In this document: in pieces, positions 16,685-48,175 of the stretch
How positions within the stretch are numbered: the stretch's first letter is position 1
Layout: each line of letters begins with the position of its first letter
NCBI GenBank assembly: GCA_964533835.1
Contig: CAZHQD010000001.1
Location: forward strand, 1-54,437
DNA: 54,437 nt
From: an uncultured Puniceicoccaceae bacterium
Lineage (GTDB): Bacteria > Verrucomicrobiota > Verrucomicrobiia > Opitutales > Oceanipulchritudinaceae
Direction of reading: 5' to 3'
The notes under the pieces: model-generated
What the model was told of the DNA's origin: nothing
Seen by the model: the letters and a program-made list of their open reading frames with translations, nothing else
Database searches by the model: none
Translations under genes and position numbers: made by a program

Positions 16685-16725
16685 GCGCGGTTGCCAATTT
16701 TTTTAGCCTCAACCTTTTTTATATT

Positions 16726-17736: not shown

Positions 17737-17780
17737 GAGTTTTCTGGCCTTCATTTTGTATTATTTTTGCCCATTTATTT

Positions 17781-21167: not shown

Positions 21168-21223
21168 AATCCGTAAACATTAGCGTGCTTCTATTTTAGT
21201 TTTGGGCATACTTGTAGGCATTC

Positions 21224-23821
21224 TTGTTTGTTTCGCCACTCGCTATGCAGCTTACCTTTCAATCCATAGATATGCTCCTTGCAGGCCGCTACCAGCCGCC
21301 CGCAGGGTTTCGTGATGAATTGGTGGATAAAGCTGGAAACATACGCCCTTACTGGCTCCCCATCATTGATAAGATGGCAGGGCTCGGTATTCATGAGCTG
21401 CGCCGAAGAGAGGAGCAGCTCAATCGCATCATTCGTGAGCACGGTGTCACCTTCAATATCTATGGGCAGGCGGATGGAAAAGACCGCCCATGGGTGATGG
21501 ATCTGCTCCCTACTGTTGTTCCCTACGAGGAGTGGAAATGGCTTGAGGAATCCCTGCGCCAGAGGGTCACGCTAATCAATTCCCTCTTGGCGGATATCTA
21601 TGGTGAGCGTCGCCTCCTTAAATCAGGTGCCATACCCCAAGAGCTTCTTTTTGCTAACCCCGAATACCTGCGCCCGTGTGTGGGTTGGTCACCCGTCAAC
21701 GGGCACCACGTCCATATTTATGCCGCTGATTTGGCCCGCTCCCCGGATGGGCACTGGTGGGTTTTAAGCGACCGCCTGGAATCTCCCTCTGGCATGGGCT
21801 ATTCCCATGAAAACCGCTTGCTTACGCGCAGGCTCTTGGGCGATCTATTTCGGACCACTCGGGTGCAGCCATTGCAGCCTTTTTTTGATAAGCTCCAATC
21901 CTCTTTCTCGCACCTTGCTCCGTGGGCCGATGGCGATCCCAAAGTTGTCTACCTTACTCCTGGTCCGGCAAATGAGACCTATTTTGAGCAATCTTATCTT
22001 TCCCGCAATCTTGGTTACCCTATCGTCCAAGGGGCCGACCTAATGGTCTGGAACAACCGCGTCTACCTAAAAACGCTGGGTGGGTCGCAACCTGTTGATG
22101 TCATTATTCGCAGAGTAGATTCGGCCTATTGTGATCCACTCGATTTCAGGGCGGATTCTTTGCTGGGAGTTCCGGGTCTTGTGGAGGCGGCACGTGCGGG
22201 CAATGTGGCGTTGGCCAATGCCTTGGGAACGGGTATCCTTGAGGCAACTGCGTGGCTGGCATTTTACCCGGCTCTTTGCCAAACGGTACTGGGAGAGTCC
22301 CTTAAGATTCCCTCTGTGGCCACTTGGTGGTGTGGCCAGGAGAGCGAGCGTAAATATGTTCTGGAGCACTTGGACGACTTGATAATCAAACCTGCATTTA
22401 GGACGGCTCCTTTCCAGGCGCGCTGGGGCGGAGAATTATCAAAGGAGGACAAGGATGATTTGCGGCAACGCATACTGGCGCAGCCCGCATTTTACTGTGC
22501 TCAGGAGCTAGTCAATAAATCAACAACCCCTGTCTTGGAAGATGCTGGCTTAATCCCGCGCCATTTCCTTACAAGGGTATATCTCGTGCGTGGGCACGAT
22601 GGGTATTTTTTGATGCCTGGTGGCCTGACTCGGATCGCATCCAATAATCACCCGCTTACGGTTTCCATGCAGCGAGGTGGGCAAAGTAAAGATACTTGGA
22701 TTTTGCAACCGCCCACAGCCCGTGTGGACGATCTTCCTCCAATCCCCGGGACTGTCACTATGGCCATTCGGCGTGCTCGCACAGATGTGCCTAGTCGTGT
22801 GGCTGACAATCTCTTCTGGTTTGGTCGTTATCTGGAGCGTTGCGACGCTCAAGCCAGGCTCATTCGAGTATTGATAAATGCGCTCACTGAAGAGAGTGAA
22901 GAGCGTTTGATCGATTTGTTGCCCATGTTTGCCATGCTTCAGGATTGGGATGTTGTCCGAAAGCAAATTAAGAGCAAAACCTTCGATATGGCATTGGCAG
23001 ACAGCGCATTGGGGAAAGGGCTATGGGATGCAGGCTTTGTTTCAAGTGTCACTGCAACCGCAGAGGGCCTGCATCGTTGTGCCTTTGCTATTAAGGATCG
23101 GCTTTCTCTTGACCTCTGGCAGACCCTCACTCGACTTCGCGAAGTCGTGCAGCAAAAGGATTTTGACTCCACGGCTGATTCAAAGAAACACAGCGTGCTG
23201 GAGGACTCCGTATTCGGCCAGCTTAGTGAGACGCTAAATCTCTTGGCTGCCGCCAGTGGCCTTGCCACGGAGAATATGACCCGCGGACAGGGCTGGGTCT
23301 TTCTAGATCTTGGAAGGCGTATCGAGCGTGGCCTTTCGCTTTGTGATCTTTTGCAAACAGGCATGGCTTTTGGGCCACTCAAGTCTGAGAGCCTTTTGCA
23401 AAAATATGTTGTGTGGGCTGATAGTATTTTGACTTACAGGCGCCGTTATCTGGCTGTCGTGCAAATTCTGCCCGCTCTGGATTTGCTCTTGCTAGATCCA
23501 GCCAATCCCCGCGCTCTTTCGTTCCAAACCTCAAGGATTCTTCAACACACTGCGCGTCTGCCCTATGTGCGCACAGAGGGGATATCTCCTCAAGAATTGG
23601 CAGAAGCCATTCATAGCCGGATTGGAGTTACCGATCTCGCTAAGGGCCCCCCCTTGGATACCAAAGTAGGCATGGAATTTGTAAGCAGCTTTTTGGATTT
23701 CGCTGGTGGTCAGTTGCGATTGCTTTCGGAGCGCTTCTCGCAAATTTATTTTGCTCAAGGGGCTGGGGCCATGCCCATGGGTATCCATAATGAGCAACAT
23801 ACTGCTGAGGATGTCGTCTAG
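21224..23821 (+). CDS. circularly permuted ATP-grasp :: alpha-E domain fusion protein
   Basis: 865-aa ORF (TTG start in the track; the first ATG is at 21245). ATP-grasp block VTLINSLLADIYGERRLLKSGAIP and alpha-E box NLFWFGRYLERCDA. Confidence 0.8.
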   Translation: MFVSPLAMQLTFQSIDMLLAGRYQPPAGFRDELVDKAGNIRPYWLPIIDKMAGLGIHELRRREEQLNRIIREHGVTFNIYGQADGKDRPWVMDLLPTVVPYEEWKWLEESLRQRVTLINSLLADIYGERRLLKSGAIPQELLFANPEYLRPCVGWSPVNGHHVHIYAADLARSPDGHWWVLSDRLESPSGMGYSHENRLLTRRLLGDLFRTTRVQPLQPFFDKLQSSFSHLAPWADGDPKVVYLTPGPANETYFEQSYLSRNLGYPIVQGADLMVWNNRVYLKTLGGSQPVDVIIRRVDSAYCDPLDFRADSLLGVPGLVEAARAGNVALANALGTGILEATAWLAFYPALCQTVLGESLKIPSVATWWCGQESERKYVLEHLDDLIIKPAFRTAPFQARWGGELSKEDKDDLRQRILAQPAFYCAQELVNKSTTPVLEDAGLIPRHFLTRVYLVRGHDGYFLMPGGLTRIASNNHPLTVSMQRGGQSKDTWILQPPTARVDDLPPIPGTVTMAIRRARTDVPSRVADNLFWFGRYLERCDAQARLIRVLINALTEESEERLIDLLPMFAMLQDWDVVRKQIKSKTFDMALADSALGKGLWDAGFVSSVTATAEGLHRCAFAIKDRLSLDLWQTLTRLREVVQQKDFDSTADSKKHSVLEDSVFGQLSETLNLLAAASGLATENMTRGQGWVFLDLGRRIERGLSLCDLLQTGMAFGPLKSESLLQKYVVWADSILTYRRRYLAVVQILPALDLLLLDPANPRALSFQTSRILQHTARLPYVRTEGISPQELAEAIHSRIGVTDLAKGPPLDTKVGMEFVSSFLDFAGGQLRLLSERFSQIYFAQGAGAMPMGIHNEQHTAEDVV

Positions 23822-23823
23822 CT

Positions 23824-24705
23824 ATGCCGAGTTACCATGTTTGCCATAACACAATAATCAGCTACGGCGCCCCTGTCTCCGTAGCGTGGCACAGTGCGCA
23901 CCTAAAGCCGCGCGAGTTTGCATGGCAGAAGATTTCCGACTACTCCCTCGTTGTTTCCCCGGATAAAAACCTATTCAGCGAAAAAATCGATTACTTTGGA
24001 AACTGGAGCCAGCGCTTTTCAATCGGAGTTGGGCATTCTGAGCTTAAAATAATCTCTTCTTTCAAAGTCTTAGTAGAAAGGGATGCTCCACTGAATGCAG
24101 AATACCAGTTTAAAGAACTCAAATCCTGGCTTAGGGCACAGGATAGCGGTGCTGCCAATTTCATCGAATTTACTCATCCATCCACGCACGTTGATACGGA
24201 TTCTAGCTTCGGCGCTTTGGCGGCTCCTTTTTTTGAGCCAGACAAACCTCTCATTGAATCATTATCCGAGTTCTGTGTCTTTCTTCATGAAGAGCTTACC
24301 TTCGATCCGGAAGCTACTGATATTTCTACTCCTGTTACCAAGGTCCTGGAGCTCAAACGCGGAGTGTGCCAGGATTTTGCCCACTTGGGCATCGCTTGCC
24401 TGCGCTCTATAGGCATCCCTGCCGCTTATGTAAGCGGGTATTTGCTTACCAATCCTCCTCCCGGGCAGCCTCGTCTTGTCGGAGCAGATGCCTCTCATGC
24501 CTGGCTCGCTGTTCCCTTGCCGAATGGGGATTGGGTAGAGCTTGACCCTACAAATGGTTGCTTGCCTACAGATAGGCATATTGTCTTGGCCAGAGGCAGA
24601 GACTACAGCGATGTCAGCCCGCTCAAGGGCGCAGTGATTGGTGGTGGTTCGCAGGCGGTCAAAGTCGAAGTTACTGTAATGCCTGAGGACGAGATTGCGC
24701 TGTAG
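23824..24705 (+). CDS. transglutaminase-like cysteine peptidase family protein (Bact_transglu_N + core)
   Basis: 293-aa ORF starting 2 nt after the previous stop. Catalytic set: GVCQDFAHLGIACLRSIGIPAAYVSGYL, ASHAWLAV, ELDPTNG. Confidence 0.85.
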   Translation: MPSYHVCHNTIISYGAPVSVAWHSAHLKPREFAWQKISDYSLVVSPDKNLFSEKIDYFGNWSQRFSIGVGHSELKIISSFKVLVERDAPLNAEYQFKELKSWLRAQDSGAANFIEFTHPSTHVDTDSSFGALAAPFFEPDKPLIESLSEFCVFLHEELTFDPEATDISTPVTKVLELKRGVCQDFAHLGIACLRSIGIPAAYVSGYLLTNPPPGQPRLVGADASHAWLAVPLPNGDWVELDPTNGCLPTDRHIVLARGRDYSDVSPLKGAVIGGGSQAVKVEVTVMPEDEIAL

Positions 24706-31964: not shown

Positions 31965-33920
31965 CTATTCCGCCACAAATCTGAAAAATACATTGGTGTC
32001 CTCTTCACTGCTCAGGGTGCTTCTCATTAGTGTGCGCCCATCGGGAGTTTCTCCCTGTTCGCTGGGTATGCTAAGCCCCGTAGTTTGCCAGCCAATAAGG
32101 TCATTGCTCCACTGTAAAATAGGCGCTGATCCTAAAAAGTCTGGCGCTACCGCATAGTCAAAATGCCAGAATTGCCCCGTGCGGCTCATTGATGAATGCC
32201 ACTTCTCACTGTCCGCCACGCTGGGGTTCATCCCAAAATAGGCCTCAAGTGAATCAGGTATCCCATCTCCGTCGCTGTCGCCGCCTTCAAGATCGATGTT
32301 GGCCGCGCCTGTTAGGGTCACAATGCTCTTGCCGGGTAGTGATAGGGTTGCGGTTCCGTTGGAAAAACTCACGGGTGTTATGCTGGCAAATCCCTCATTG
32401 CTCTTTGTGCGATAGGCATTCAGGCTCTGCAATCCGATGGATGCAGGCAAGCTCAGGTTCACGCTTTCCTCCGTAGACTTCATATTGATAAGAACAACAG
32501 TAAGCTGCTGATCTCCAGGGTGATAGTACACACTGCCATTTATGCTGTTCAGTGTGTCGTAGCCATTGCTGCCGCCTGTAGCAGGGTAGCCGTTCTCAAA
32601 GCTCCCGCCGATGCGTATGGCGCCTGGTCGCACATAGCGTGAAAAATGCTTAAACGCGCAGTATTTCTTAGAGTTATGTGGATTGTTTATGTTGTTTTTG
32701 CCCAGCAAGTTGCTCTCATTTTCAGTGCCGCTTGTGTCGGAAAATTGCCAATAAAGGTAGGCAGCCACATTTCCATAAGCGAGCGCTTCTTGCATCTTGA
32801 TGGCAGTGTTCATTGCGCCTGGCCAAGTCACGCCGGAATCTCCCGTCTCAGATGCCCATGTCGGTTTGCCGTCATTCTTGAGCCCGTAGACTACAGAGTT
32901 GGCCGCGTTGCCCAGCCAGCCCCAATTACCGCCCACAGTCGAGGCGCCCAGCCAATACCCGGCCCAAGCCCTTGCGCCTCCTTCGCCCGCTTCCATGTAG
33001 CCGTTGGAGCCATAGTAGGTTAAAAAGTTTATAAGTGTAGGATCGCTGTGCTGCTTCACTCCGTCTATCATCTTCATTTGCCAGTTCAGGGCATAGGGGT
33101 TCGTATTGGTCGGTCCTACGTTTGCTACGTGCGGGCCCTTGATTTTTGCAGAGACGCCAAAGCGATTGAATGCCGTTCTCACTGCATAGAGCGCATTGGC
33201 GTATTGGCTCCAGTCATCCGCCCCATTAGCATTTTTCTGGTAGGTGCAGCTATCGAATGGGTTCTCAAAAGTGCTCTCATTCTGAATACTTATGGCATAC
33301 ATGGGCATTCCATATTCTCTTTCCCAGCCCTCTAGCCATGCTGCCACAAAGCGCCCGAATTGTTCCAGATTGTCGGGTGTTTGAAGGAGCCTGCCGCCAA
33401 TACTGTCTCCACTCGTTCCATTTGATAGCCATGGCGTGGGCTTGGATACACTTGGATTGTTTACGTGATAGGTTGAAAATCCTGTGGGGCCCTTCATCCA
33501 GTGCGGGGGGCTCCAGAAGGATCCCACAATCTTAACTCTTTCAGGCTCCAGAGCATTTACGGTTAGCCATTTTGCCATGTCTCCATACACGCTAGCCACT
33601 TGCGTCTTGAAATTCATCTTAGCCACGTTGGCATCAAGATTGTCCTCCAGAGGTACAGGGGTTGCGTGATTGCCAGACGAGTGTATCAATACTTCCCGCG
33701 CCATATCTACCCGCAGGATATTGCACCCCAGATCGCGATAGGTCTGCCGCCAAGTTTCATTGTAGTAGGGTGTGCTTCCGATACTCCAGTAAATCATGCA
33801 AGTTCCCCAACCTTCTATGGTCTGGAACCTTTCATCGGGATTAATACTGAATGTGGCCGCCATCGCGCTGTTCAACAGGCCAAGCGCTGCCACCGTTACG
33901 GGGAGTTTTAGGAGTCTCAT
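31965..33920 (-). CDS. exported GH30-like glycoside hydrolase with the same C-terminal Asp-rich/beta module as the GH78
   Basis: 651-aa ORF with a signal peptide (MRLLKLPVTVAALGLLNSAMA). GH30-like blocks: FQTIEGWGT, GSFWSPPHWMKG, ISIQNES, TWASETGD. C-terminal DSDGDGIPDSLEAYFGMNP. Confidence 0.65.
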   Translation of the reverse strand: MRLLKLPVTVAALGLLNSAMAATFSINPDERFQTIEGWGTCMIYWSIGSTPYYNETWRQTYRDLGCNILRVDMAREVLIHSSGNHATPVPLEDNLDANVAKMNFKTQVASVYGDMAKWLTVNALEPERVKIVGSFWSPPHWMKGPTGFSTYHVNNPSVSKPTPWLSNGTSGDSIGGRLLQTPDNLEQFGRFVAAWLEGWEREYGMPMYAISIQNESTFENPFDSCTYQKNANGADDWSQYANALYAVRTAFNRFGVSAKIKGPHVANVGPTNTNPYALNWQMKMIDGVKQHSDPTLINFLTYYGSNGYMEAGEGGARAWAGYWLGASTVGGNWGWLGNAANSVVYGLKNDGKPTWASETGDSGVTWPGAMNTAIKMQEALAYGNVAAYLYWQFSDTSGTENESNLLGKNNINNPHNSKKYCAFKHFSRYVRPGAIRIGGSFENGYPATGGSNGYDTLNSINGSVYYHPGDQQLTVVLINMKSTEESVNLSLPASIGLQSLNAYRTKSNEGFASITPVSFSNGTATLSLPGKSIVTLTGAANIDLEGGDSDGDGIPDSLEAYFGMNPSVADSEKWHSSMSRTGQFWHFDYAVAPDFLGSAPILQWSNDLIGWQTTGLSIPSEQGETPDGRTLMRSTLSSEEDTNVFFRFVAE

Positions 33921-34850: not shown

Positions 34851-37800
34851 ATGAACCTAGAAAAAGCAATTGGTCCCTTTGGTTCTAATCGGCGGGCTCT
34901 CACGAGAGACCCATTCCTTCTGGAATACGCCAATCTAAAATTGGCGGCCATGGGAGCCCCCATTGTAGGCGTCCAATCTGACTACAAGTTTATGCAGATT
35001 GCCGAAGCCCTCTTGGGCAATTATCAGGAAAAGACGCGCTTGCTCACCAATTGGCTCAGCCCTGTTGATTTCAGAATTCAGAACTGGCTTCATGACTACC
35101 TCAAGGGAGTTCCGATGGAGAATTTGCCCCGCCTGCCTGCAAATACTTTCATATTGGATAGGCACGGGCTTGCCCGTGTTCTCTCCCTTCCCATGGAAGG
35201 AGACACTTTCAAGTCCAGTATTATTAGTTCTTATAGACTGGCTCAAGGGGTTCTCCATAATCCCGACAAAGATCGCCGCACTACCAAGGGCGTCTTTCAC
35301 GTAACTGAGGGTGGCCTTCCTATTCCAGGGGATAAAGTGGCAACCCCGCGTGCCACCTTCGCGCGTCTTTTGGAAATCGCCCTGAATCCTCCCAAAGATT
35401 TAATGAGGCTTCCTTTTACGGCAAATTCCGATGAGCAGGCAGAAATCTGGCTTTCGCTTCTCCTGCGCCCAATAGTGGTTCCAGCCATTCCAGGCCACGC
35501 CGAGGCAAAGCGCATGGAGGTTCGTTTCTTTGCCCCAGGCAATTTGGTGGCCAATTTGGACTTTGTTGAGTCTATCTTCGGTAATGCGGGAGACCCCTAC
35601 CTTGCCGAAAATGATTCCGCTCTCGATATTGAGCATTGGACAGGCCATTCGGGTTGCGTAATCTTGGCCCCTCACCTAATCAATGCCAATAAGAAGGATA
35701 TCGGCCTGCCTCACATTTCCAAGGCCACTGAGCGCCAAAAGCGCGATGGCATGTGCTGGGAAAAAGAAGACGAGAAATATAACGACGGGCAAGCATTCAA
35801 GATTACCGCGCGTGATGAGCGTGGTGTCGTTGTGACGCTTATCGCGGATAACTATTTTGGCTACTGCAAGAAAGAGGTAAAAACACAAATCAGCTTCGCC
35901 GCTAACCTTCTCGGCAATGCAGAAGAAGAACACGCTGGCGGCGCCGTTGCCTTCCCCTCCTACGATCTGGGTGAGGATTTCCGCCTGAGCCAGTATTATC
36001 CCGAAGTAACTCATACCTTTGCTGATATTCTGAAAATCAAGGGTGATGAAATTGAGCTAAAACCCGAAGGATACGCCGTAGATAAGAAGTTTCCTGATAT
36101 TTACTACGTTCCAGAAGACGCCTATTTCACCCTTTCAGAACAACGTATCAGATGGAAAACAGACAAAGGTGAGAGCGCTATCATCCTGAAGCCAGGTATC
36201 GTCTACATTTTGCCCAGTGGCTACAAAGTAGAGATGATTCGTCCAAAAGAAGGACGTCGCTGGCGCATCATCGGCAGCACGGCAGAAGGTACTTTTACCC
36301 ATAAGCCCTGTACGGTGTCAGGTGGTGGCAAATCAGAAATCTCAAAATCCATCATGGATGCCATCATCACAGGCCCCGTCGTCGTGGCTGATTTCAAGGC
36401 TGACTTTGATAGGGTGCAAGAGATCATCAATAAAGAGTATGGGATGCGCTTTAAGGATAAATCCAAGTGCAAGCAGAAGGGACGTCCTTTGCTTAGCAAG
36501 CAGCGCTCCTTGGGGTCTGTCGTAAAGCTGCTCTCCCCGTCCCCGGAATACACTGATGAATACAACGCCTGGCTCCGCTCCATTCCTTACTATGTTAAGG
36601 AACTCGTATTCATAGTAAAACGCTTCTATAAAGAAGACTGGGGCACCAATTGGCGGGATCGCTTCCATGTGGATCTCATCAACGGTACAGGTGGTAATGA
36701 GCTGCGCTACCGTGACCAAAAGCTTATGACCCAATACCTGCGCATTGGTTTCACTGCAGATGGAGCTTGGCGTACTTTTGGGTTGCGTAAGGACTTTTAC
36801 CCCGCCCAGAAAATTCAGACCGAAGACGATATCAGTGCCTCTACCATTCTCCCGGCGGACAAGGTTAAGGGGCTCAATCCGGCTCAGCCTGAACCTTCGG
36901 TAAAGTTTGTTGAGAATTGCGAGTTCCGCCTCTTCCAACGCCCCGATGACGCCATCATTCGCGGTTACGACAAGAAGACGGAGTGGGATATGGCTCAGCT
37001 TGGTAGCTTTACCTGTAACTATGAGCCTCTCTCTCGGGAGCAGGTTCGCCAAATGACTGAAGATACCATCCGCTTCGAGCAGTTCACTTCTCCGATGAAG
37101 ACCCTTCTTAAGGACTTTGCGGAGGATCCCAGTGCCACGTTCAAGTATGTGGTATCATCCGCGCATCCTCGTGTGGTTGATGGCAAACCCAGTAAGAACC
37201 CTCGCTACTTGCAGGATCGTGGCGATTTGGAAAATCCCAGAGCCTATTACTTGGCCGAAACAGGTACTCGGCTCTACCGCAGGATACCAGCGGGACAGGG
37301 TGTGCCAATGCCCGTGAATTCTATTCTTTGTGGACGTCGTAACAATCCTCCAGAGCCAGGTGTGCGCGCACTGGCCGTCTTTAATCCTATTCATTATCTG
37401 GAGCTTCCTGAGCTCTTTATGGAGTTCATATCCAGCATGACAGGAAAGAGTCCTTCCACCACGGGTGCAGGCTCTGAGGGTGCTCTTACTAAGGGCCCCT
37501 TCAATGCATTGCCACCCATAGTGGATTTGAACAACGCTTTAGTATCTTACTTGGTCACCAATATGCCCGGCTTCATTACAGCCGCGGGTTATGTCGGACC
37601 AAAAGTTCGCGTTGATCACGACATCAGCTTGCTTGTTCCTGAGGTTTGGAGCCGTATGCGTATCGAAGAGCGCGATCCCAAGTATCTCATCGAACATGGT
37701 TACTTGGAGAAATGCCCCGATATCGAGCATAAGGGCAAAGTAATACCTTCTTCGCTTTTAGGCTATCGCATCACTGAGCTCTTTGTTCAGGCCTTTTTTG

Positions 37801-38327
37801 GTCGCATATTTGCCAATCCTGATGTGGTGCTCACTCCCGAGATGCTTCGTCCTGAAAAGCAGGATATGGATATCTTCGCTGATGCGATGGATAATATTAC
37901 TACTACGCACCAGCGCGTTGCTATGCTCTACATTGAGGACGGCTCCATACATGGCGCTTGCCCTCCGCTCAAGGCCCTTCTCCATATCATGGCCTACGGA
38001 AGCTACGAAGGAAAGGGTCTCAACCATCCTGACATTCGCCGCCTGTTTTCTCGCGAGGAGTTTCTCAAGAGCGATTGGTATAAAACACGCCTCGAAGAGA
38101 GCCGCCTGGTTCAGTGCGAGCTCTGGCTAAGCCATGTGCAGACTCTCGAAGCGTTCCTTGCTAAGTCCACTCATGCTGAGCAAGCTATATCATTAGGGTT
38201 GCCACAGAAGCTCGAAGTGGCTCGCAAGCAGCTCGCTGCCCTGCGCGATCCTTCCTATGCTGCCTCGCTTGTGGGTACCCTTGGTACAGACCCTTGGCTC
38301 CGCTCCTTAAAGCAAGTTCAAGACTAG
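34851..38327 (+). CDS. large PEPCK-like protein, candidate PPi-dependent phosphoenolpyruvate carboxykinase
   Basis: 1158-aa ORF. Three PEPCK-like motifs occur in the canonical order. RTTKGVFHV (aa 143-151) compares with GRSPKDKYIV of ATP-PEPCK. YFGYCKK-x19-EH (aa 335-361) compares with YGGEMKK…MH or YGGNxLLGKK…AEH. SGGGKSE (aa 490-496) is P-loop-like. The size matches the ~130-kDa PPi-type enzymes. Motif-level evidence only. Confidence 0.5.
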   Translation: MNLEKAIGPFGSNRRALTRDPFLLEYANLKLAAMGAPIVGVQSDYKFMQIAEALLGNYQEKTRLLTNWLSPVDFRIQNWLHDYLKGVPMENLPRLPANTFILDRHGLARVLSLPMEGDTFKSSIISSYRLAQGVLHNPDKDRRTTKGVFHVTEGGLPIPGDKVATPRATFARLLEIALNPPKDLMRLPFTANSDEQAEIWLSLLLRPIVVPAIPGHAEAKRMEVRFFAPGNLVANLDFVESIFGNAGDPYLAENDSALDIEHWTGHSGCVILAPHLINANKKDIGLPHISKATERQKRDGMCWEKEDEKYNDGQAFKITARDERGVVVTLIADNYFGYCKKEVKTQISFAANLLGNAEEEHAGGAVAFPSYDLGEDFRLSQYYPEVTHTFADILKIKGDEIELKPEGYAVDKKFPDIYYVPEDAYFTLSEQRIRWKTDKGESAIILKPGIVYILPSGYKVEMIRPKEGRRWRIIGSTAEGTFTHKPCTVSGGGKSEISKSIMDAIITGPVVVADFKADFDRVQEIINKEYGMRFKDKSKCKQKGRPLLSKQRSLGSVVKLLSPSPEYTDEYNAWLRSIPYYVKELVFIVKRFYKEDWGTNWRDRFHVDLINGTGGNELRYRDQKLMTQYLRIGFTADGAWRTFGLRKDFYPAQKIQTEDDISASTILPADKVKGLNPAQPEPSVKFVENCEFRLFQRPDDAIIRGYDKKTEWDMAQLGSFTCNYEPLSREQVRQMTEDTIRFEQFTSPMKTLLKDFAEDPSATFKYVVSSAHPRVVDGKPSKNPRYLQDRGDLENPRAYYLAETGTRLYRRIPAGQGVPMPVNSILCGRRNNPPEPGVRALAVFNPIHYLELPELFMEFISSMTGKSPSTTGAGSEGALTKGPFNALPPIVDLNNALVSYLVTNMPGFITAAGYVGPKVRVDHDISLLVPEVWSRMRIEERDPKYLIEHGYLEKCPDIEHKGKVIPSSLLGYRITELFVQAFFGRIFANPDVVLTPEMLRPEKQDMDIFADAMDNITTTHQRVAMLYIEDGSIHGACPPLKALLHIMAYGSYEGKGLNHPDIRRLFSREEFLKSDWYKTRLEESRLVQCELWLSHVQTLEAFLAKSTHAEQAISLGLPQKLEVARKQLAALRDPSYAASLVGTLGTDPWLRSLKQVQD

Positions 38328-38400: not shown

Positions 38401-39771
38401 TTAGATGCCTGATTCGGGAGCATCCGCCACCATAAACATAAGCTCGGCGCTGGATACAGTCTTCTCGCCTACTTTGCACTCGCACTCGGCCACAGCCAGC
38501 TTGTCACCCCGTGTCTTGACGAGCTTTACGTGTATCCGGAGTTGGTCTCCGGGCGTAACAGGCGCACGGAACTTGACCTTGTCGGCGCTCATAAAGAAGG
38601 CCACTTTGCCTTCGCTGGAAACTCTCAAGAGCATCAGGATACCTGCGGACTGTGCCATAGCCTCAACTTGTAAGACACCTGGCATTACAGGGTTTCCAGG
38701 GTAGTGGCCCGTAAAGTAGTGCTCGTTTATGGTCACATTTTTGACGGCGATTAATTCATCCTGGCTAATGAGCTGCTCTACCCTGTCAATCATCACAAAG
38801 GGGTAGGCGTGGGGTAGGATGTCGAGTATGCGGCGTATATCCAAAGACTTCTCGTCGGGCTTTACGATTTTGGCCGTTGAGCCCTTGGCTGCTTTACCCA
38901 CCGCAGGTTCTGCTTTTTTCTTGGTATCCTTAGCCTCTTTGCCAGCTTGAAATTGGTCGAATATCTTCGCGGTCAGTTTGGAATTGAGCGCATGCCCCGG
39001 CCTGACAGCGATAATGTGGGCCTTGAGAGGCATGCCAAGGAGCGTGATATCGCCCACGATGTCCAGTATCTTGTGCCTTACAAACTCGTCGGCAAAGCGC
39101 AAAGGCTCTTTGCTAAGTATCTTGTCGCCCTTGATGACTACCGCAGAATCCAGGCTACCACCTTGAATCTTGCCCATTTTCAAGAGTGGTTCGATATCCT
39201 CATAAATAGTAAAAGTCCGTGAAGGTGCGATGTCCGCAATGTAGGTTTCAGGGTCTATATCTACGGAAAGGTGTTGAGTGTGAATACCTCTGTCGTCCGC
39301 GCTTGTGCAGGTAATTCTAAGGCGGTCACAAGGAAGCGCAATTATTGAGCGATTGCCTTCCGTGACAGACACAGGAGCAGTCAGCTCGTAATAAACGCGC
39401 TCGGCATCTTGCTCTACAGGTTCTGCCTTCTGGATAAGGTTCACAAAGTGCTTCGAGCTACCATCGAGGATCGGAGGCTCAGAGGCGTTCATTTCGATGA
39501 TCGCATTATCCACCCCGCACCCACTGAGCGCTGAGAGGACGTGTTCCACAGTGTGAATCTTGGCGTGCCCAGATTGTATGTCTGTACTGCGAACCAACTC
39601 GGCCACATTTTGCACAATAGGTTTAATCTCGGGTTTGCCGAAAAGGTCCACTCGCCTAAAGACATACCCCGTATTTACGGGAGCAGGCTTTATGGTAAGG
39701 TGAACTTCTTGGCCTGTATGCAGGCTTTTTCCAGAGATGGTGGCTTCGCGTAGCAGTGTGCGTTGTTTCAT
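38401..39771 (-). CDS. lpxC/fabZ: bifunctional UDP-3-O-acyl-GlcNAc deacetylase / 3-hydroxyacyl-ACP dehydratase
   Basis: 456-aa ORF. LpxC N-terminus ([42 protein letters not shown]; [10 protein letters not shown]). FabZ C-terminus ([13 protein letters not shown]…[22 protein letters not shown]). Confidence 0.9.
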
Positions 39772-43075: not shown

Positions 43076-43591
43076 ATGGCCGGACTCAAATACCGTTCTC
43101 TTCTCTTGCGTGGCAATCGCTTGCTGGGTTCCTCATTAGTCTCTGCTGGGCTGATTTCCGAAGAGAATCAGCAAAATGCCAGCCAAAAGCTTCTGGAAGT
43201 CATACAGGCAGACAATCTGAAGGCAGCAGGTTTGCTTTATATACTGTTGTACGATCTCCATGCGCTTAAAGAAAGCGCACTGATTACACATCAACTCGAA
43301 AAGCACGAGCTGGGGCTTATTGATCTGCATAACTTTGCGGTTGAGGCCACCTTTGATCACACGCTCGATTTGGAATTATGCTGGTCCACTTGGACACTGC
43401 CATTCGATAGAGTAGATGGCATCCACTTGGTCGCCTCCTGCTACTACCTGTCAGAGCCCATTCGCAAGCACTGGGAAGGCGTTCTGAACGGACAAATTAT
43501 GTGGTATGTCATTAGTATCGCTGGCATCATGGAAGCGTTGGAGCGAATAAGCGCGGCTGCAAATGCCAAGGCGGCACCCACGGCCGCATAA
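43076..43591 (+). CDS. stand-alone GspE/PilB N-terminal (T2SSE_N / MshEN-like) domain protein
   Basis: 171-aa ORF. N-terminal helix pair RLLGSSLVSAGLISEENQQNASQKLLE. Then …GLIDLHNFAVEATFDHTLDLELCWSTWTLPFDRVDGIHLVASCYYLSEPIRKHWEGVLNGQIMWYVISIAGIMEAL. This parallels the N-domain of the downstream ATPase (…[59 protein letters not shown]). Confidence 0.55.
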   Translation: MAGLKYRSLLLRGNRLLGSSLVSAGLISEENQQNASQKLLEVIQADNLKAAGLLYILLYDLHALKESALITHQLEKHELGLIDLHNFAVEATFDHTLDLELCWSTWTLPFDRVDGIHLVASCYYLSEPIRKHWEGVLNGQIMWYVISIAGIMEALERISAAANAKAAPTAA

Positions 43592-43609
43592 TCATTATAA
43601 ATTCAAGCC

Positions 43610-44908
43610 ATGGGCTATAGAGCACTCATCGTCGATGATGATCAGGATTTTTGCAATCTCCTGAACGATGTGTTTGAGCAAGCCGACTACGAGGTGACGG
43701 CTGCAACGTCATCCGTGGAAGCTCTCCAGCTCTCAAGACAGCACTATTTCGATTTGATTGTTACCGATCAGCGTATGCCTGAGCTGAGCGGACTTGAATT
43801 TATTAGGCGAATCCGTGAAGTGCGTGCGGACGTCCCCATAATCATGGTTTCTGGCTATCTTGATAATCAGACCATTCGGGAGCTTATTCGGCAGGGAGTG
43901 GGCGGAGTCTTCATGAAGCCTCTCAATATTTTTTCTCTGCTTAAAAAGGCGACTGCCTTAATTGAGAAAAATCAGCAATTGCACCGACTGCAAGATGGCG
44001 CAAAAGAGGATAATGGCAGTGCCTGGCAGCATAATCTTCCATTCCACCTCAACTGCCTACCCTGTAAGTCTGCCAAATCAATTCAGTTTGCTCTTTCGCT
44101 TTATGATCACAGGTCATTCAAAACATGCCTCAGTCTGATCGGTGAAGATGGATCTGACTTTGAAGGTGTGTGCCGCGATCTCTGCGGATTCCAAGAAGCA
44201 GACTACCCCATCTTTTTACAACTCAGCGAACTGCATAATGATATTTTACCGGAGCTAATTCTCTCTCACACGGGTAGTAAAACCAATAGCGTGACACTCG
44301 TAGTCCAAGATGCAGACGCATTGGCAGGTGAAGCGGTAAACACTCTGGTAAGTGTGACGAGAAAAGAAGGAGCCTATGCGCGTATTCGCTTACCAATTCG
44401 AGTGGTTTTTTGTCTGCATAAGGATATAGACACGCTCTATGAGGCAGGGCAATTGGATGATAGGCTCTACTTCATTATGGGCACGGCTGAGGTACGCATT
44501 CCAGCTCTCAGGGAAATAGCGGAAGATATACCGCTCTTGGCAAAGAGGCTTCTTGCTGAATACACCGCAAACAAGGTGTCTTTGGAGCCTGATGCGGAAA
44601 ACTATCTCACCTCCTTGCCGTGGCCGGGAAATTACGGTCAATTAAAGCAGCTCATCCAGCAAGTTTCAAAAATTGCCAACGACTCTTCGATAACGGAAGA
44701 CTATTTGAGGTACCTCTACGAGAACAAGCCACTGCCAAGCGCAGGAATGGGTGCCGCTTATGCAAGAACAGTGCATGAATACCTGAAATCCCTGCGAGAT
44801 GAGTATCTTTTGGCTGCCTTGGAGCTACTTGGAGGGGACTCTACACAAACCGCCGGTGCCCTAAAAATCCAGCCTGCGCTCATTAAAGCAGTGGTTACCA
44901 AGCGTTAG
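43610..44908 (+). CDS. response regulator: receiver + degenerate NtrC-type AAA+ module + Fis-type HTH
   Basis: 432-aa ORF. REC domain has DDD, D53 in VTDQRMP, MVSG and KP. The AAA+ lid signatures are kept (IPALREIAEDIPLLAKRLL, LPWPGNYGQLKQLI). Walker A reads GEDGSDFE instead of GESGTGKE, Walker B reads VVQDADAL, and there is no GAFTGA. C-terminal HTH: LLAALELLGGDSTQTAGALKIQPALI. Confidence 0.75.
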   Translation: MGYRALIVDDDQDFCNLLNDVFEQADYEVTAATSSVEALQLSRQHYFDLIVTDQRMPELSGLEFIRRIREVRADVPIIMVSGYLDNQTIRELIRQGVGGVFMKPLNIFSLLKKATALIEKNQQLHRLQDGAKEDNGSAWQHNLPFHLNCLPCKSAKSIQFALSLYDHRSFKTCLSLIGEDGSDFEGVCRDLCGFQEADYPIFLQLSELHNDILPELILSHTGSKTNSVTLVVQDADALAGEAVNTLVSVTRKEGAYARIRLPIRVVFCLHKDIDTLYEAGQLDDRLYFIMGTAEVRIPALREIAEDIPLLAKRLLAEYTANKVSLEPDAENYLTSLPWPGNYGQLKQLIQQVSKIANDSSITEDYLRYLYENKPLPSAGMGAAYARTVHEYLKSLRDEYLLAALELLGGDSTQTAGALKIQPALIKAVVTKR

Positions 44909-44988
44909 TGAGCTTGCGCTATGCTATTTTTCCTGCTTTAAGCTTACGGTTGCTTGCAGTGTAACCCTTTATCCGCCAATTTCCCCCT

Positions 44989-46320
44989 ATGCCCGGTGAT
45001 GTCTTAGTACTCGACGACGAAGAAAGCTACGCCCGAATGCTGGCGGATTTTCTCCGTTCAGAGGGATACAACGCCACAATGTCGACTAGCCCACTTGGGG
45101 TTTTGGATCTGCTCAAAACCAGGGCTTTTGATCTGGTTGTTGCGGACTATAAAATGCCTGAAATGGATGGAGCAGACTTTTTGCTTAAGGCACGGCAGAT
45201 ACGTCCCGGATTGCCTGTCATTATGGTATCGGGAATGATGAATACCCCCGATCTTCTTAGGGTTGCGAATATCGGGGTTCCGCTCGTTTTGGAGAAACCC
45301 TTCGATACGGAGGTATTTCTTGAGTATGTCAGTAGATATGCCTCGCCTGCCACAGCGGCAATGCCACTTGAGCGTGCTATCGGGACGGCTCCTTCATTAA
45401 CTGCCAAGCGTTCAAAAATTTACCCCGCTGACCTAAAGTATCTATCAGACAGCAGCGCTTCCTCTCGTACTTTTTTACAAAACTTGTGGCAGCAGTTAGG
45501 ACAGGGAAATCTCATCTACATTGCAATGCCTCCAGGCAGCGAGATGGAGTTGCTGCTCCATGAGGTTAGCCGTTGGAAGCAGGCTGATCGCGCGACTGCC
45601 AGGAAAATCAAGGTTTCCGATCTTGGGGAAACGGAAACTCTGGAGCTCCTGCGTTTATTCGCAAACGATACCAAATTTGCTCCCGTAGTAGGTGTCCATT
45701 CGGGTGATGCCTCTTTTACTGAGCAGATACTGCGCATACTCCGCTTTATTCCAGCGATTGAAAATGAGGAGGCTCTCAAAGACTTGGTGTTTGTGTTTCA
45801 GCTAACTGGGTGGAAACAACCCCAGGATCCTCCAGCCGACAAAGATTTGCCTGATTTTTTTAGTGGACGCTTGCTCTGGCTCCCACCGCTCAGGGAGCGG
45901 CCCATGGATATTTGCACATACGCAAAGCGGCAGCTCCATCAATTGGATCCCGGCGGAAAAGCGAAACTCACTCCCGAGGCGGTTCGGCTATTATTGGCAT
46001 ATCCCTGGCCGGGAAATTATCAGGAATTGGTAAGTGTGCTTTGGAGTGCGTGGCAACTTAGGGAGTCCAATGAAATTGGTCACAAACCGCTAGCCAAGGC
46101 TATCTACGAGAAGTCCGTATTGAAAGAAGATCCATATGGGGAAGCGGGCTTGGAAGAAATTCTCCGTGTGCGCCAGTCCGAATACCTTACTCGATTGTAC
46201 AATTTGTACGGGGAAGAAATTCCCTCAGAATTACTAGGTGCAATCGATTTTTCAGCAATGGAGGCATTTGATTTAGAGACAGGTCCCTTGCTGTTCCCTG
46301 ATCTGCTTGAAAGGAGTTGA
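44989..46320 (+). CDS. response regulator: receiver + degenerate NtrC-type AAA+ module (HTH weak or absent)
   Basis: 443-aa ORF. REC domain has LDDEE, D in VADYKMPEMDG, MVSG and EKPF. AAA+ lid signatures: LPPLRERPMDICTYAKRQL, YPWPGNYQELVSVL. The Walker A position reads AMPPGSEM, and there is no GAFTGA. Confidence 0.7.
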   Translation: MPGDVLVLDDEESYARMLADFLRSEGYNATMSTSPLGVLDLLKTRAFDLVVADYKMPEMDGADFLLKARQIRPGLPVIMVSGMMNTPDLLRVANIGVPLVLEKPFDTEVFLEYVSRYASPATAAMPLERAIGTAPSLTAKRSKIYPADLKYLSDSSASSRTFLQNLWQQLGQGNLIYIAMPPGSEMELLLHEVSRWKQADRATARKIKVSDLGETETLELLRLFANDTKFAPVVGVHSGDASFTEQILRILRFIPAIENEEALKDLVFVFQLTGWKQPQDPPADKDLPDFFSGRLLWLPPLRERPMDICTYAKRQLHQLDPGGKAKLTPEAVRLLLAYPWPGNYQELVSVLWSAWQLRESNEIGHKPLAKAIYEKSVLKEDPYGEAGLEEILRVRQSEYLTRLYNLYGEEIPSELLGAIDFSAMEAFDLETGPLLFPDLLERS

Positions 46321-46340
46321 CGAATTATTTACGTAATTCG
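46321..46340 (+). other. hairpin immediately after the second response-regulator stop codon
   Basis: CGAATTA (46321-27), loop TTTACG, TAATTCG (46334-40). It is a perfect 7-bp stem but AT-rich and has no U-tract. Function unknown. Confidence 0.25.
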
Positions 46341-46411
46341 CACCGCCATCATTATTTTGTGCTCTAAAAACGATTTACAAATAGTATTGTAAAAATCACT
46401 AAAGTTTCCCC

Positions 46412-48175
46412 ATGCCTCTTCCGCGTTTACAGTCCTCCATAGTTCAAAAATTACAGGAAATGGGTCGCCTGACTGAAGACCAGGCTAACAGGCTCTATGA
46501 TTCGCCCGACGATATCACGGGCGAAGCGATGGATAAGATACTACGTGAGGAATATAAGATATCAGACTTCAGTTTGCTCACAGCTAAAGCACGGGCCTTT
46601 GAGCTCTATCCGATTAACAGCAAGCATCTGCGGCCAGGTCCGAATACTTTTGAGAAGTTGGAAAAGGATTTTTGTCGGGAAAACAAGGTCTTCCCGCTCG
46701 GAGTTGTAGGCGATCACATAGCGATTGTCATAACAAACCCCTTTAATCTCTCGATCGCCAATCGCATTGCGGAGATTACGAAGCTTAAGGTGAGCCTATT
46801 GCTCGGATTTGAAGCCGATGTGATGACCCACCTTGACGAGAAGGTACAAGCGCCACAGTCCGCTGGTTTTGGAGATGTTATGCGCGGGCTCTCTGATGCG
46901 TTTGGTGAGGATGTAGAAATTAAAGAAGATGAGCTGGAAGAGGAATCGGCGCCTATCATTCAGTTGGCAAACCGCATTATTGAGGACGCCTATTACTCAG
47001 GTGGCTCCGATATACATATCGAACCTTTTGAAACACAGGCACGAATCCGCGTTCGTGTTGACGGCGTTTGTTCGGAAAAACTTTCCATACCACCAAAGGT
47101 ATGCAGCGCTCTGATGGCGCGTCTTAAAGTGATGGCCAATCTTGATATTGCGGAGAAACGTTTGCCGCAGGATGGGCGTATCGTTTTTAAGCAATTTAAC
47201 AAGAAGGGTCTGGATATCGACTTGCGCGTATCTACAGCGCCTCTTAATCACGGCGAGGGCGCTGTGATGCGTATTCTGGACAAGCAAAAGTCTACTTTGC
47301 CTCTTAGTGCGTTAGGCTTTTCGCCTGACAACCTTGCGGTATATCGGGAGGTCATTCAGCGGCCCTATGGCATGGTTCTTCACTGTGGACCAACAGGTTC
47401 AGGAAAATCCATGACGCTGTACTCCGCGCTTAATGAAATTAACACGCCCGATGTCTGTATACGAACCGCAGAAGACCCAATCGAATATACTTTGCCAGGT
47501 CTTTTGCAAATGCAGATGAATCGGCGAATCGGGCTCACTTTTGCCAGTGCGCTACGTGCCTTTCTGCGTCAGGACCCAGACATCATTCTCGTGGGAGAAA
47601 TTCGTGATGCAGAAACTGCTGGAATCGCTGTAGAGGCAGCCCTCACGGGTCATATGCTGTTTTCTACTTTGCATACAAACGATGCTCCCAGTACAGTGGC
47701 ACGACTAACGGACATGGAGATTGAGCCCTTCATGATTTCCACATCAATCCTGGCCGTATGTGCACAGCGTTTGATGCGTCGCGTATGCAAGACATGTAAG
47801 CAAGCATATGTTCCTGAAGGCAGAGAAGCGGCACTAATGGAGCGTGCAATTGGCTGGAACGGGCAAATCTATCGTGCCAGTCCAAACGGTTGTCCTGTAT
47901 GCAACAATACGGGTATGAAAGGGCGCGTAGGAACCCATGAGCTGATGATCACCTCTGAGGATCTCATCAAGGGAATAAACGCTGAAATGGAAGCGGCAAA
48001 GCTAAAGAAAATCGCTGTGCGCAATGGTATGAAAACGCTTCACCAAGACTCCCTTCTCAAGGTGAAAGACGGCATTACTACTATCACGGAAGCTCTCACC
48101 AATATTCCACCTGACTTGGAGGATATAGCGAAAATTATTAGCGCTCCCACCATGGAAGAGGCTCTGCTTTACTAA
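46412..48175 (+). CDS. GspE/PilB-family secretion ATPase (type II secretion / type IV pilus assembly type)
   Basis: 587-aa ORF. It has a T2SSE_N-like N-domain, Walker A GPTGSGKS, Asp box AEDPIEY, Walker [13 protein letters not shown], His box [12 protein letters not shown] and a tetracysteine CKTC…CPVC. Confidence 0.9.

Follow-up and report, generated by a model that had tools for sequence, protein, structure and literature searches.

Gene content of the locus and domain architecture of its products

The 54,437-nucleotide (nt) stretch of DNA analysed here (contig CAZHQD010000001.1, positions 1 to 54,437; hereafter the window) belongs to an uncultured Puniceicoccaceae bacterium of the phylum Verrucomicrobiota (assembly GCA_964533835.1), and contains a cassette of four genes on the forward strand, between positions 43076 and 48175. 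These encode a small protein, here named P1, two response regulators (RRs), RRa and RRb, each with a receiver (REC) domain, and a PilB/GspE-type ATPase of the type IV filament class, which comprises the type IV pilus (T4P) and type II secretion system (T2SS) (Table 1). The open reading frame (ORF) calls, with intergenic gaps of 18, 80 and 91 nt, are identical in orientation, size and spacing to those of the original prediction, which was made from the sequence without database searches. Assemblies of three or more independent sequencing runs contain this locus. Downstream of the ATPase gene are, as predicted, those for an EVE-domain protein (Pfam E = 3e-56) and a FabI-like short-chain dehydrogenase/reductase. 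Pfam analysis of all window ORFs of at least 120 amino acids (aa) revealed no T2SSF platform protein, secretin, prepilin peptidase, pilin or histidine kinase, and a regular expression for prepilin leaders had no match within the window, in keeping with the earlier remark that such components, pseudopilins included, are missing. As neither HisKA nor HATPase_c was matched by Pfam in the window, no cognate kinase gene lies close to the RR genes there. An Rfam search of the whole window returned no matches, and no riboswitch in the cassette. Sigma54-type promoter matches were fewer than expected by chance, with none in the intergenic regions of the cassette, while a scan for sigma70 promoters and terminators gave background levels, which are uninformative on operon structure. 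The remaining genes of the window code for housekeeping and glycan degradation functions typical of Verrucomicrobia.

P1 by itself has no match in Pfam, its only NCBIfam match is to the PilB N-terminus (E = 0.089), and BLASTP comparison with the cognate ATPase gave nothing significant. A word-indexed search found six relatives, while an exhaustive profile search produced 166 family representatives. Among the 150 of these that were listed, nearly all are stand-alone proteins of 150–190 aa and none is of ATPase length, and all named members of the family are annotated as 'hypothetical protein'. When a profile of 62 family sequences was compared with the PDB, only the N-domains of PilF, PilB and MshE were matched, with E-values of 5.4e-8 for PilF (6f8l), 8.3e-7 for Myxococcus xanthus PilB (P1 residues 16–161) and 5e-4 for MshE-N. 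The MshEN domain (PF05157) was matched at E ≤ 0.1 by 20/62 family members. The 62-sequence alignment was also used for AlphaFold2 (AF2) prediction, in place of a seven-sequence alignment which gave an unusable model (pLDDT 51.6), and yielded a model with a pLDDT of 95.7 and a pTM of 0.89. In the MshEN fold, a helical subdomain at the N-terminus precedes one of beta-beta-alpha-beta-alpha topology, and the P1 model shows this succession, with six helices and then E-E-H-E-H. The top 21 Foldseek matches of this model in the PDB are all PilB-N, PilF-GSPII (A/B), MshE-N or XpsE-N domains (TM-score, TMt, up to 0.73), headed by the PilB-N chain of the PilB-N/PilZ complex 7lko. Furthermore, hhalign aligned the P1 family with the N1 domain of the cognate ATPase clade (88.6 % probability; E = 2.7e-6; 13 % identity). 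On the strength of the profile matches, the modelled fold, the Foldseek matches and the hhalign alignment, P1 is a genuine, anciently diverged MshEN/GSPII (T2SSE_N) domain and no recent fragment of the ATPase. Fold and profile thus agree, despite the lack of a Pfam match, with the original prediction that the 171-aa protein consists only of a T2SSE_N/MshEN-like domain, and the fold was one of the points on which that prediction could have been refuted.

Unlike the usual MshEN domain, which is located at the N-terminus of a T2SSE ATPase, P1 is encoded as a separate ORF. The family is distinguished by the signature N14-R15-x-L-G18, C102-W-x-T-W-T-x-P-F-D111, Y123, S126, W133 and W143, in which N14-R15, CWxTWTxPFD, W133 and W143 are invariant. 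A relaxed form of the published 24-residue cyclic di-GMP (c-di-GMP) motif (PMC5013675) was present in 0/42 P1 sequences and 0/55 ATPases. This motif, RLGxxLVxxGLIxxxxLxxxLxxQ, occurs in tandem in those MshEN domains that form the c-di-GMP receptor subclass. The Arg of this motif is displaced by one position in P1, and the Gly and Gln positions of the second motif are missing.

In RRa, Pfam distinguished a REC domain (residues 6–113; E = 1e-25), a weak Sigma54_activ_2 match (residues 153–300) and an AAA_lid_14 domain (residues 301–369; E = 7e-11), and in RRb a REC (residues 5–114; E = 8e-20) and an AAA_lid_14 domain (residues 302–376; E = 5e-8). The best matches of both proteins are NtrC1 (4l4u, 1ny5) and NtrC/ZraR/AtoC models, with alignment to NtrC1 just over the REC domain and the stretch from sensor I to the lid. 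Motifs were compared among RRa, RRb and 13–14 orthologues of each, against two genuine sigma54 activators, or enhancer-binding proteins (EBPs), from the fetched loci. The Walker A Lys is gone, its position reading GEDGSDFE in RRa and MPPGSEME in RRb, with the orthologues equally degenerate, as is the DE of Walker B (LVVQDAD and VGVHSGD, respectively). In comparison with the two EBPs, every RRa and RRb lacks 14 residues that include the whole GAFTGA loop. The sensor I Asn is also gone (ATN to FCLH or FQLT), and the Arg fingers (FRxDLYYRL) read LDDRLYFIM in RRa and are lost in RRb. With Walker A and B, GAFTGA, the sensor I Asn and the Arg fingers lost, canonical ATP hydrolysis and sigma54 engagement are predicted to be impossible. 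The REC-AAA+ order and the lid motifs PxLRExxEDI and WPGN are still present, and the REC phospho-acceptor pocket (DDD...D...S...K) is found in both proteins. Its motifs were recovered in 13/17 RRa and 13/17 RRb, the others, including a split gene in locus L014, having failed the strict anchoring or the regular expression for beta4. This combination of lost catalytic motifs and intact pockets corresponds to the earlier description of the pair as NtrC-like proteins that are ATPase-dead and phosphorylation-controlled. In the split RRa gene (L014:7247-8559), a REC-only ORF (132 aa) is followed by a pseudo-AAA+ ORF (303 aa), a split that may be natural or may stem from a frameshift or an assembly error.

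Across 120 members of the RRa family, conservation is strong in the alpha4-beta5-alpha5 face of the REC domain (GVGGVFLKPLNIFSLL) and in a non-catalytic FPCKS motif, while the C-terminal Fis-like helix-turn-helix (HTH) remnant is poorly conserved, with a mean net charge of -0.2 over the last 30 aa. The putative recognition helix of RRa lacks the basic residues conserved in two reference EBPs, and HTH_8 was not matched by Pfam in RRa or RRb. In RRb, nothing HTH-like could be aligned, and the protein terminates with a conserved hydrophobic peptide of the consensus (P)LL[FY]P[DES]L[LI], which occurs in 17/17 RRb orthologues and 0/17 RRa and is a candidate docking peptide. DNA binding by either protein is, from these features, doubtful. 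RRa and RRb share 24 % identity over 409 aa (BLASTP E = 3e-27), and are ancient paralogues which, judged by their motifs and domain order, clearly derive from EBPs of the REC-AAA+-HTH type.

The ATPase incorporates an MshEN domain (residues 68–143) and a T2SSE domain (residues 177–562; Pfam E = 7e-122). All of the catalytic boxes which the original prediction regarded as intact could be located: GPTGSGKS at residue 326, EDPIE at 354 and further boxes at 388 and 413, with the CKTC and CPVC of the tetracysteine motif at 459 and 494. The T2SSE core thereby has its Walker A, Asp box, Walker B, His box and tetracysteine Zn site. Walker A, the Asp box and Walker B are conserved in 44/44 members of the ATPase clade, and CxxC...CxxC in 41/44. 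As these motifs are intact throughout the clade, the 587-aa protein is predicted to be a catalytically competent PilB/GspE-type hexameric motor. The NCBIfam models for PilB (TIGR02538) and GspE (TIGR02533) gave 546.5 and 523.7 bits, against cut-off values of 675.65 and 630.25, respectively.

Conservation and variability of the cassette among the Opitutae

A scan of species-representative genomes for the ATPase identified 52 loci, nearly all from the class Opitutae, in which ORFs were labelled with hidden Markov models (HMMs); genes in the fetched loci were called by ourselves from ORFs, mostly in metagenome-assembled genomes (MAGs). Full-length homologues of RRa, with 35–50 % identity, occur across the Opitutales and Puniceicoccales, including the cultured Cerasicoccus, Coraliomargarita, Rubellicoccus and Lentimonas. 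P1 is present in 34/37 evaluable species-level loci of the ATPase clade, a count which includes as positive two loci (L026 and L039) that were labelled in the first HMM round and missed by later filters. In 27 of the 34 P1-bearing loci it directly abuts the ATPase gene, and the twelve gaps measured between the two span 1–45 nt, mostly less than 10 nt, in addition to two apparent overlaps. The order P1-RRa-RRb-ATPase was observed in seven loci of the ATPase clade, and L001, a Verrucomicrobiota MAG, and L008, from Coraliomargarita, have this same four-gene order. In loci of this type P1 either precedes RRa by 12–87 nt or overlaps it, and 9–101 nt separate RRb from the ATPase gene downstream. The order is P1-RRa-X-(PEP-CTERM gene)-RRb-ATPase in Rubellicoccus and RRa-X-RRb-P1-ATPase in L009. 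Some contigs carry P1-RRa-RRb or P1-RRa without an adjacent ATPase gene, and P1 is thus linked independently to both of its partners. In L011, where the ATPase is 74 % identical to that of the window, P1 abuts the ATPase gene and the RRs are absent, which suggests that the RR pair is readily gained and lost. The conserved core across the class Opitutae consists of P1 and the ATPase, to which the RR pair is added as an insert that varies between lineages. The four-gene synteny put forward in the original prediction does recur outside this genome, but as a unit it is narrowed to P1 and the ATPase.

The cassette is usually situated between Obg and MnmA, and Obg, MnmA, AdoHcyase, FtsZ and an amylase are its recurrent neighbours. 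Cassettes of differing gene order also differ in their flanks between lineages, and the four-gene arrangement, seen again in dozens of species with unrelated flanks, is not a product of chance. Histidine kinases are just sporadic near the relatives (L006, L005 and L020). In L020, where P1 is absent, a 371-aa REC-HisKA-HATPase hybrid (L020:8809-9924) is encoded directly upstream of the ATPase. This hybrid and a cNMP-binding histidine kinase encoded beside the Rubellicoccus cassette are candidates for the kinase. A complete T4P or T2SS operon flanking the equivalent genes, which would make the cassette an ordinary split locus, was found in none of the approximately 55 related loci, and no platform, secretin or peptidase genes occur among the Pfam-annotated genes of 13 distinct related loci. 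T4P and T2SS families are likewise absent among the recurrent neighbours, in a survey of the 25 commonest Pfam families from which single T2SSF or secretin cases may escape.

A second clade of ATPases in the Opitutae, with proteins of 730–850 aa, a GAF-MshEN-T2SSE architecture and 53–59 % identity to the window ATPase, has no P1 or RR neighbours and is encoded outside pilus operons (L051–L058, e.g. L054:9329-11815 and L057:9266-11821). Both clades are represented in Cerasicoccus frondis (L007 and L054). Fusions of GAF with PilB were not found described in the literature searched, from which most subscription journals are missing. Because this paralogous clade is likewise unlinked to platform genes, 'orphan' status is normal for the ATPases of these genomes. 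The word, applied to the window ATPase in the original prediction, is accurate as to the lack of platform genes nearby but describes what is typical of the lineage.

An optional fifth gene, X (218–232 aa), is located between RRa and RRb in at least four lineages and is absent from the window (Table 1). The copies of X are mutually homologous (E 1e-25 to 1e-11), and Pfam and PDB sequence searches with them gave no match. The possibility that X is a paralogue of P1 was rejected, as sequence comparison places X in a family of its own.

One region between Obg and MnmA (L062/L063) holds RRa, RRb and an ATPase, together with a duplicated unit which includes P0187, a longer member of the P1 family in which a REC domain is fused to a P1-type domain. 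The gene for P0187 lies 5 nt upstream of that for a 590-aa paralogous ATPase (56 % identical to the window's); the other ATPase of the region is 68 % identical. Judged by predicted domain architecture, this fusion provides a case of a receiver domain with direct input into a P1-type MshEN domain encoded ahead of an ATPase of this type. Among the related loci surveyed, this is the only one in which the cassette is physically tied to pilin genes: a prepilin-type pilin (155 aa; KAFTLVE leader) is encoded after RRb, and the region also contains two small minor-pilin-like ORFs and a PilX-like DUF7305 protein, which accompany the duplicated unit in the insertion. The 155-aa gene had been considered as a P1 in L063, and was rejected as such in view of its prepilin-type character and GspG-like N-terminus.

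Table 1. Coordinates of the cassette features in the window, and of gene X and the duplicated unit in related loci
Feature	Position	Strand	Basis
P1, stand-alone protein with a divergent MshEN/GSPII (T2SSE_N) domain, 171 aa	43076..43591	+	ORF, family profile, AF2, Foldseek
RRa, REC, sigma54-activator-like pseudo-AAA+ (predicted catalytically dead) and degenerate Fis-type HTH remnant, 432 aa	43610..44908	+	Pfam, alignment
RRa receiver domain, phospho-acceptor pocket intact (DDD, D53, S, K)	43625..43948	+	Pfam, alignment
RRb, REC, more degenerate pseudo-AAA+ and lid, 443 aa	44989..46320	+	Pfam, alignment
RRb C-terminal short motif PLLFPDLL (RRb residues 433–440), candidate docking peptide	46285..46308	+	Orthologue comparison
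PilB/GspE-type type IV filament assembly ATPase, 587 aa; N1 MshEN, N2, catalytic domain with tetracysteine	46412..48175	+	Pfam, NCBIfam
Gene X, L006	11344-12042	+	ORF calls
Gene X, L007	11321-11977	+	ORF calls
Gene X, L009	11776-12471	+	ORF calls
Gene X, L015	7905-8576	+	ORF calls
Duplicated unit, REC-P1 fusion and 590-aa ATPase, between RRb-pilin and ancestral ATPase	L062/L063 5214-16225 (5.69 Mb contig)		

Several other window genes deserve mention. A 1017-aa lipoprotein-like tetratricopeptide repeat (TPR) protein is encoded divergently from P1 (39866-42919, reverse strand), a position which is not kept in the relatives, and just upstream of its gene is an LpxC-FabZ fusion with LpxC and FabA-like domains (38401-39771, reverse strand). 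A 1158-aa ORF (34851-38327, forward strand) had no match in our own Pfam scan, while its precomputed annotation is PF26300 (PEPCK_PPi_lobe_2); it probably codes for a pyrophosphate-dependent phosphoenolpyruvate carboxykinase. The 651-aa ORF beside mreB (31965-33920, reverse strand) has no Pfam match. Genes for circularly permuted ATP-grasp, alpha-E, transglutaminase-like and DUF2126 amidoligase proteins form a large cluster (289-2871, reverse strand, and 15239-24705, forward strand), which includes two fused CP_ATPgrasp-alpha-E proteins, one within the cluster and one at 289-2871, and one split pair.

A putative regulatory module for a type IV filament motor

The domain identities, the losses of catalytic motifs, the pairwise linkages of P1 with the ATPase, P1 with RRa and RRb with the ATPase, and the REC-P1 fusion are established in this analysis. 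Read together, these features suggest, with about even chances of being right, that the cassette is an Opitutae-specific regulatory module for a motor of the T4P/T2SS class, in which P1 would serve as a trans-acting adaptor relaying phospho-signals from the pseudo-EBPs. The ATPase would be the hexameric motor, with its membrane platform, pilins and secretin presumably encoded elsewhere in the genome. P1 would provide an extra MshEN/GSPII domain in trans, made together with the ATPase and most likely binding to its N-terminal tier as an adaptor or regulatory subunit rather than as a c-di-GMP sensor. RRa and RRb, as former sigma54 activators, would no longer hydrolyse ATP or possess the loop that contacts sigma54, and would probably not bind DNA, while keeping a phosphorylatable receiver and the AAA+/lid scaffold; they would most likely act post-translationally. 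Their phosphorylation by an unlinked histidine kinase could change the oligomeric state or an exposed surface, and through P1, and possibly also the LLFPDLL peptide of RRb, they would switch motor assembly or docking on or off. In this scheme we infer each physical interaction, the direction in which the motor is regulated, the kinase involved and the filament type. The GAF sensor present in cis in the paralogous ATPase clade, set beside P1 and the RRs in trans, fits signal input at the N-terminus as a common theme.

Several observations weigh against this proposal. The PilB and GspE models score alike on the ATPase and both fall below cut-off, as they do for its paralogues, so that T4P, T2SS and competence systems are not differentiated. 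P1 is missing from the ATPase loci L012, L020 and L047, and the cassette of Cerasicoccus (L007) has the order RRa-X-RRb-ATPase without P1. Since the P1-ATPase pair of Opitutaceae has no RRs within 10 kb, the RRs would be dispensable for the core role of P1 and could serve another purpose. The tight spacing of P1 and the ATPase gene speaks for co-expression and not for binding, and it is from gene linkage that we infer an action of the RRs and P1 on the motor. Alignment of RRa to NtrX/ZraR/NifA extends into the HTH region, where a Fis-type helix-turn-helix scaffold is recognisable, and given this scaffold RRa may retain residual DNA binding. Finally, assembly of EBP rings normally needs nucleotide at the subunit interfaces, and phosphorylation-controlled oligomerisation of a nucleotide-free pseudo-AAA+ protein is uncertain. 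A more specific form of the proposal is possible but doubtful: RRa and RRb would form a hetero-oligomer, a dead, phosphorylation-gated AAA+ scaffold which docks via P1 and LLFPDLL onto the motor and gates filament assembly. The RRs would then represent a new class of post-translational motor regulators, 'pseudo-enhancer-binding proteins', and P1 a family of trans-acting MshEN subunits that is the near-universal partner of one ATPase clade across the Opitutae.

RRa and RRb might instead be atypical, sigma54-independent transcription factors in the manner of VpsR or Rhodobacter NtrC, acting on the ATPase, pilin or other genes, with P1 partnering the ATPase separately and the RR genes placed there only for co-regulation. 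The REC-AAA+-HTH order kept by RRa, with its alignment to NtrX/ZraR/NifA as far as the HTH region, the P1-ATPase pairs of many lineages that lack the RR pair, and the precedent of PilR/PilS, in which NtrC-type RRs regulate pilin genes, would all accord with such a role. We nevertheless consider it unlikely, given that HTH_8 is undetected, that the recognition helix is poorly conserved among the 120 members, devoid of basic residues and of a net charge near zero, and that RRb shows no HTH-like alignment and terminates in a hydrophobic peptide. Both Walker A and Walker B are gone, whereas the atypical sigma70-dependent EBPs known to us all keep their nucleotide-binding motifs. The cassette lacks a sigma54 promoter, and the persistence of the P1-RRa linkage without an adjacent ATPase gene, along with the fusion of REC to a P1-type domain, points to coupling at the protein level. 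The four genes might also be unrelated and share a housekeeping region fortuitously, the flanking Obg and MnmA being conserved by vertical descent such that some of the synteny could be inertia. This is scarcely credible, as the internal links are kept in lineages with wholly different flanks, the genes stay together even where their order has changed (RRa-X-RRb-P1-ATPase in L009), and a fusion protein with a duplicate ATPase exists.

For P1 itself, the original prediction left the choice between a decoy and an adaptor. As a decoy or anti-activator, P1 would compete with the N1 domain of the ATPase for a platform docking site (of the PilM/GspL/PilC class) until sequestered by the RRs. It has the same fold as the docking domain, and N1 domains of GspE/PilB do bind GspL or PilZ partners (PDB 2bh1 and 7lko, both among the Foldseek matches of P1). 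With just 13 % identity to the cognate N1 and an invariant Trp-rich signature of its own, P1 is however ill-suited to mimicry, its near-obligate coupling to the ATPase gene at 1–16 nt implies stoichiometric co-production, which is unusual for an inhibitor, and the cis analogues, namely the three-GSPII protein PilF and the fusion of REC to P1, point to an additional layer of regulation and not to competition. The chances of a decoy thus seem rather small, and the close gene spacing and the REC-P1 fusion upstream of an ATPase favour the adaptor or subunit half of the original alternative. P1 could also be a receptor for c-di-GMP or another nucleotide, conferring second-messenger sensitivity in trans on an ATPase whose own MshEN has lost the motif. 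MshEN is a widespread high-affinity c-di-GMP receptor (PMC5013675), the canonical motif is missing from both P1 and the ATPase N1, so that some input must come from elsewhere, and a conserved Arg/Asn pair (N14, R15) is kept at the start of P1 helix 1. The departures of P1 from even the relaxed motif, described above, make this quite improbable, and degenerate MshEN domains which do not bind c-di-GMP exist, for example in XpsE (PMC12943098).

Significance and comparison with known systems

In T4P and T2SS biology, the activation and docking of PilB/GspE-type motors are still an open problem. With the cassette, which is carried by a group of marine and soil members of the phylum, a small and genetically defined system becomes available in cultured Verrucomicrobia (relatives of Coraliomargarita, Rubellicoccus and Lentimonas), where two-component signalling appears to reach the motor via a free MshEN domain. 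It could show the role of the poorly understood N1 tier of these ATPases, and could be a clear case of an AAA+ transcription activator evolved into a non-catalytic signalling scaffold. It could also explain the control of secretion or piliation in the abundant marine polysaccharide-degrading Verrucomicrobia, and a functional prediction is gained for a family of 166 sequence clusters annotated as 'hypothetical protein'.

The original prediction did not recognise the arrangement as one already described, and likewise we found no earlier account of stand-alone MshEN partners, of degenerate EBPs acting on pili, or of Opitutaceae pili or T2SS in the literature searched, with its limited coverage of subscription journals. 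A 2024 review of PilB cofactors deals with cyclic AMP/Pil-Chp and c-di-GMP signalling, PilZ/FimX, CpiA and phage peptides, and makes no mention of a free MshEN-type partner, pseudo-EBPs, 'stand-alone', 'NtrC' or 'Verrucomicrobia' (PMC11656802). Wang et al. 2016 (PMC5013675) noted fusions of MshEN with REC and with further signalling domains. Receiver proteins control PilB/PilT motors post-translationally in several bacteria, including PilG/PilH of Pseudomonas aeruginosa, the PATAN-REC proteins PixG/PixH/PilG of Synechocystis and DrdR of Xanthomonas campestris (PMC10519157, 10.1101/2021.06.11.447907, PMC11181946, PMC13507683). These differ from RRa and RRb in that they are single, tandem or PATAN-REC proteins and are not known to have a degenerate sigma54-activator AAA+ domain or a free MshEN partner.

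Among type IV filament ATPases, the closest likeness is to PilF of Thermus thermophilus, where, as proposed for the cassette, more than one MshEN/GSPII domain forms an extra N-terminal regulatory tier, and the GSPII-A domain of which is among the best matches of P1 (9g1w, TMt 0.73, by structure; 6f8l, E = 5e-8, by sequence). The three GSPII domains of PilF are however present in cis and at least GSPII-B binds c-di-GMP, whereas P1 is a separate protein without the c-di-GMP motif and is gene-linked to response regulators. Similarly, P1 shares the MshEN fold of Vibrio cholerae MshE (5htl, among the top matches), but has neither of the 24-residue c-di-GMP motifs and is no part of an ATPase. The proposed role of P1 resembles that of the small cytosolic adaptors of the PilB-PilZ-FimX system of Xanthomonas citri and P. 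aeruginosa, which relay a signal on the N-terminal domain of PilB (PMC11656802). There an adaptor of the PilZ fold relays c-di-GMP signals received via FimX, while P1 has an MshEN fold and would have REC-pseudo-AAA+ proteins upstream. Compared to the EBPs NtrC, NtrC1, ZraR and PilR, RRa and RRb keep the lid and sensor II region and lose all catalytic and sigma54-contact features. The known atypical EBPs, such as FleQ and VpsR, still bind nucleotide and DNA. The cassette is thus of a known kind, the control of a PilB/GspE motor by accessory proteins and a two-component system, to which it adds two new component families, the free MshEN partner and the pseudo-EBP response regulators.

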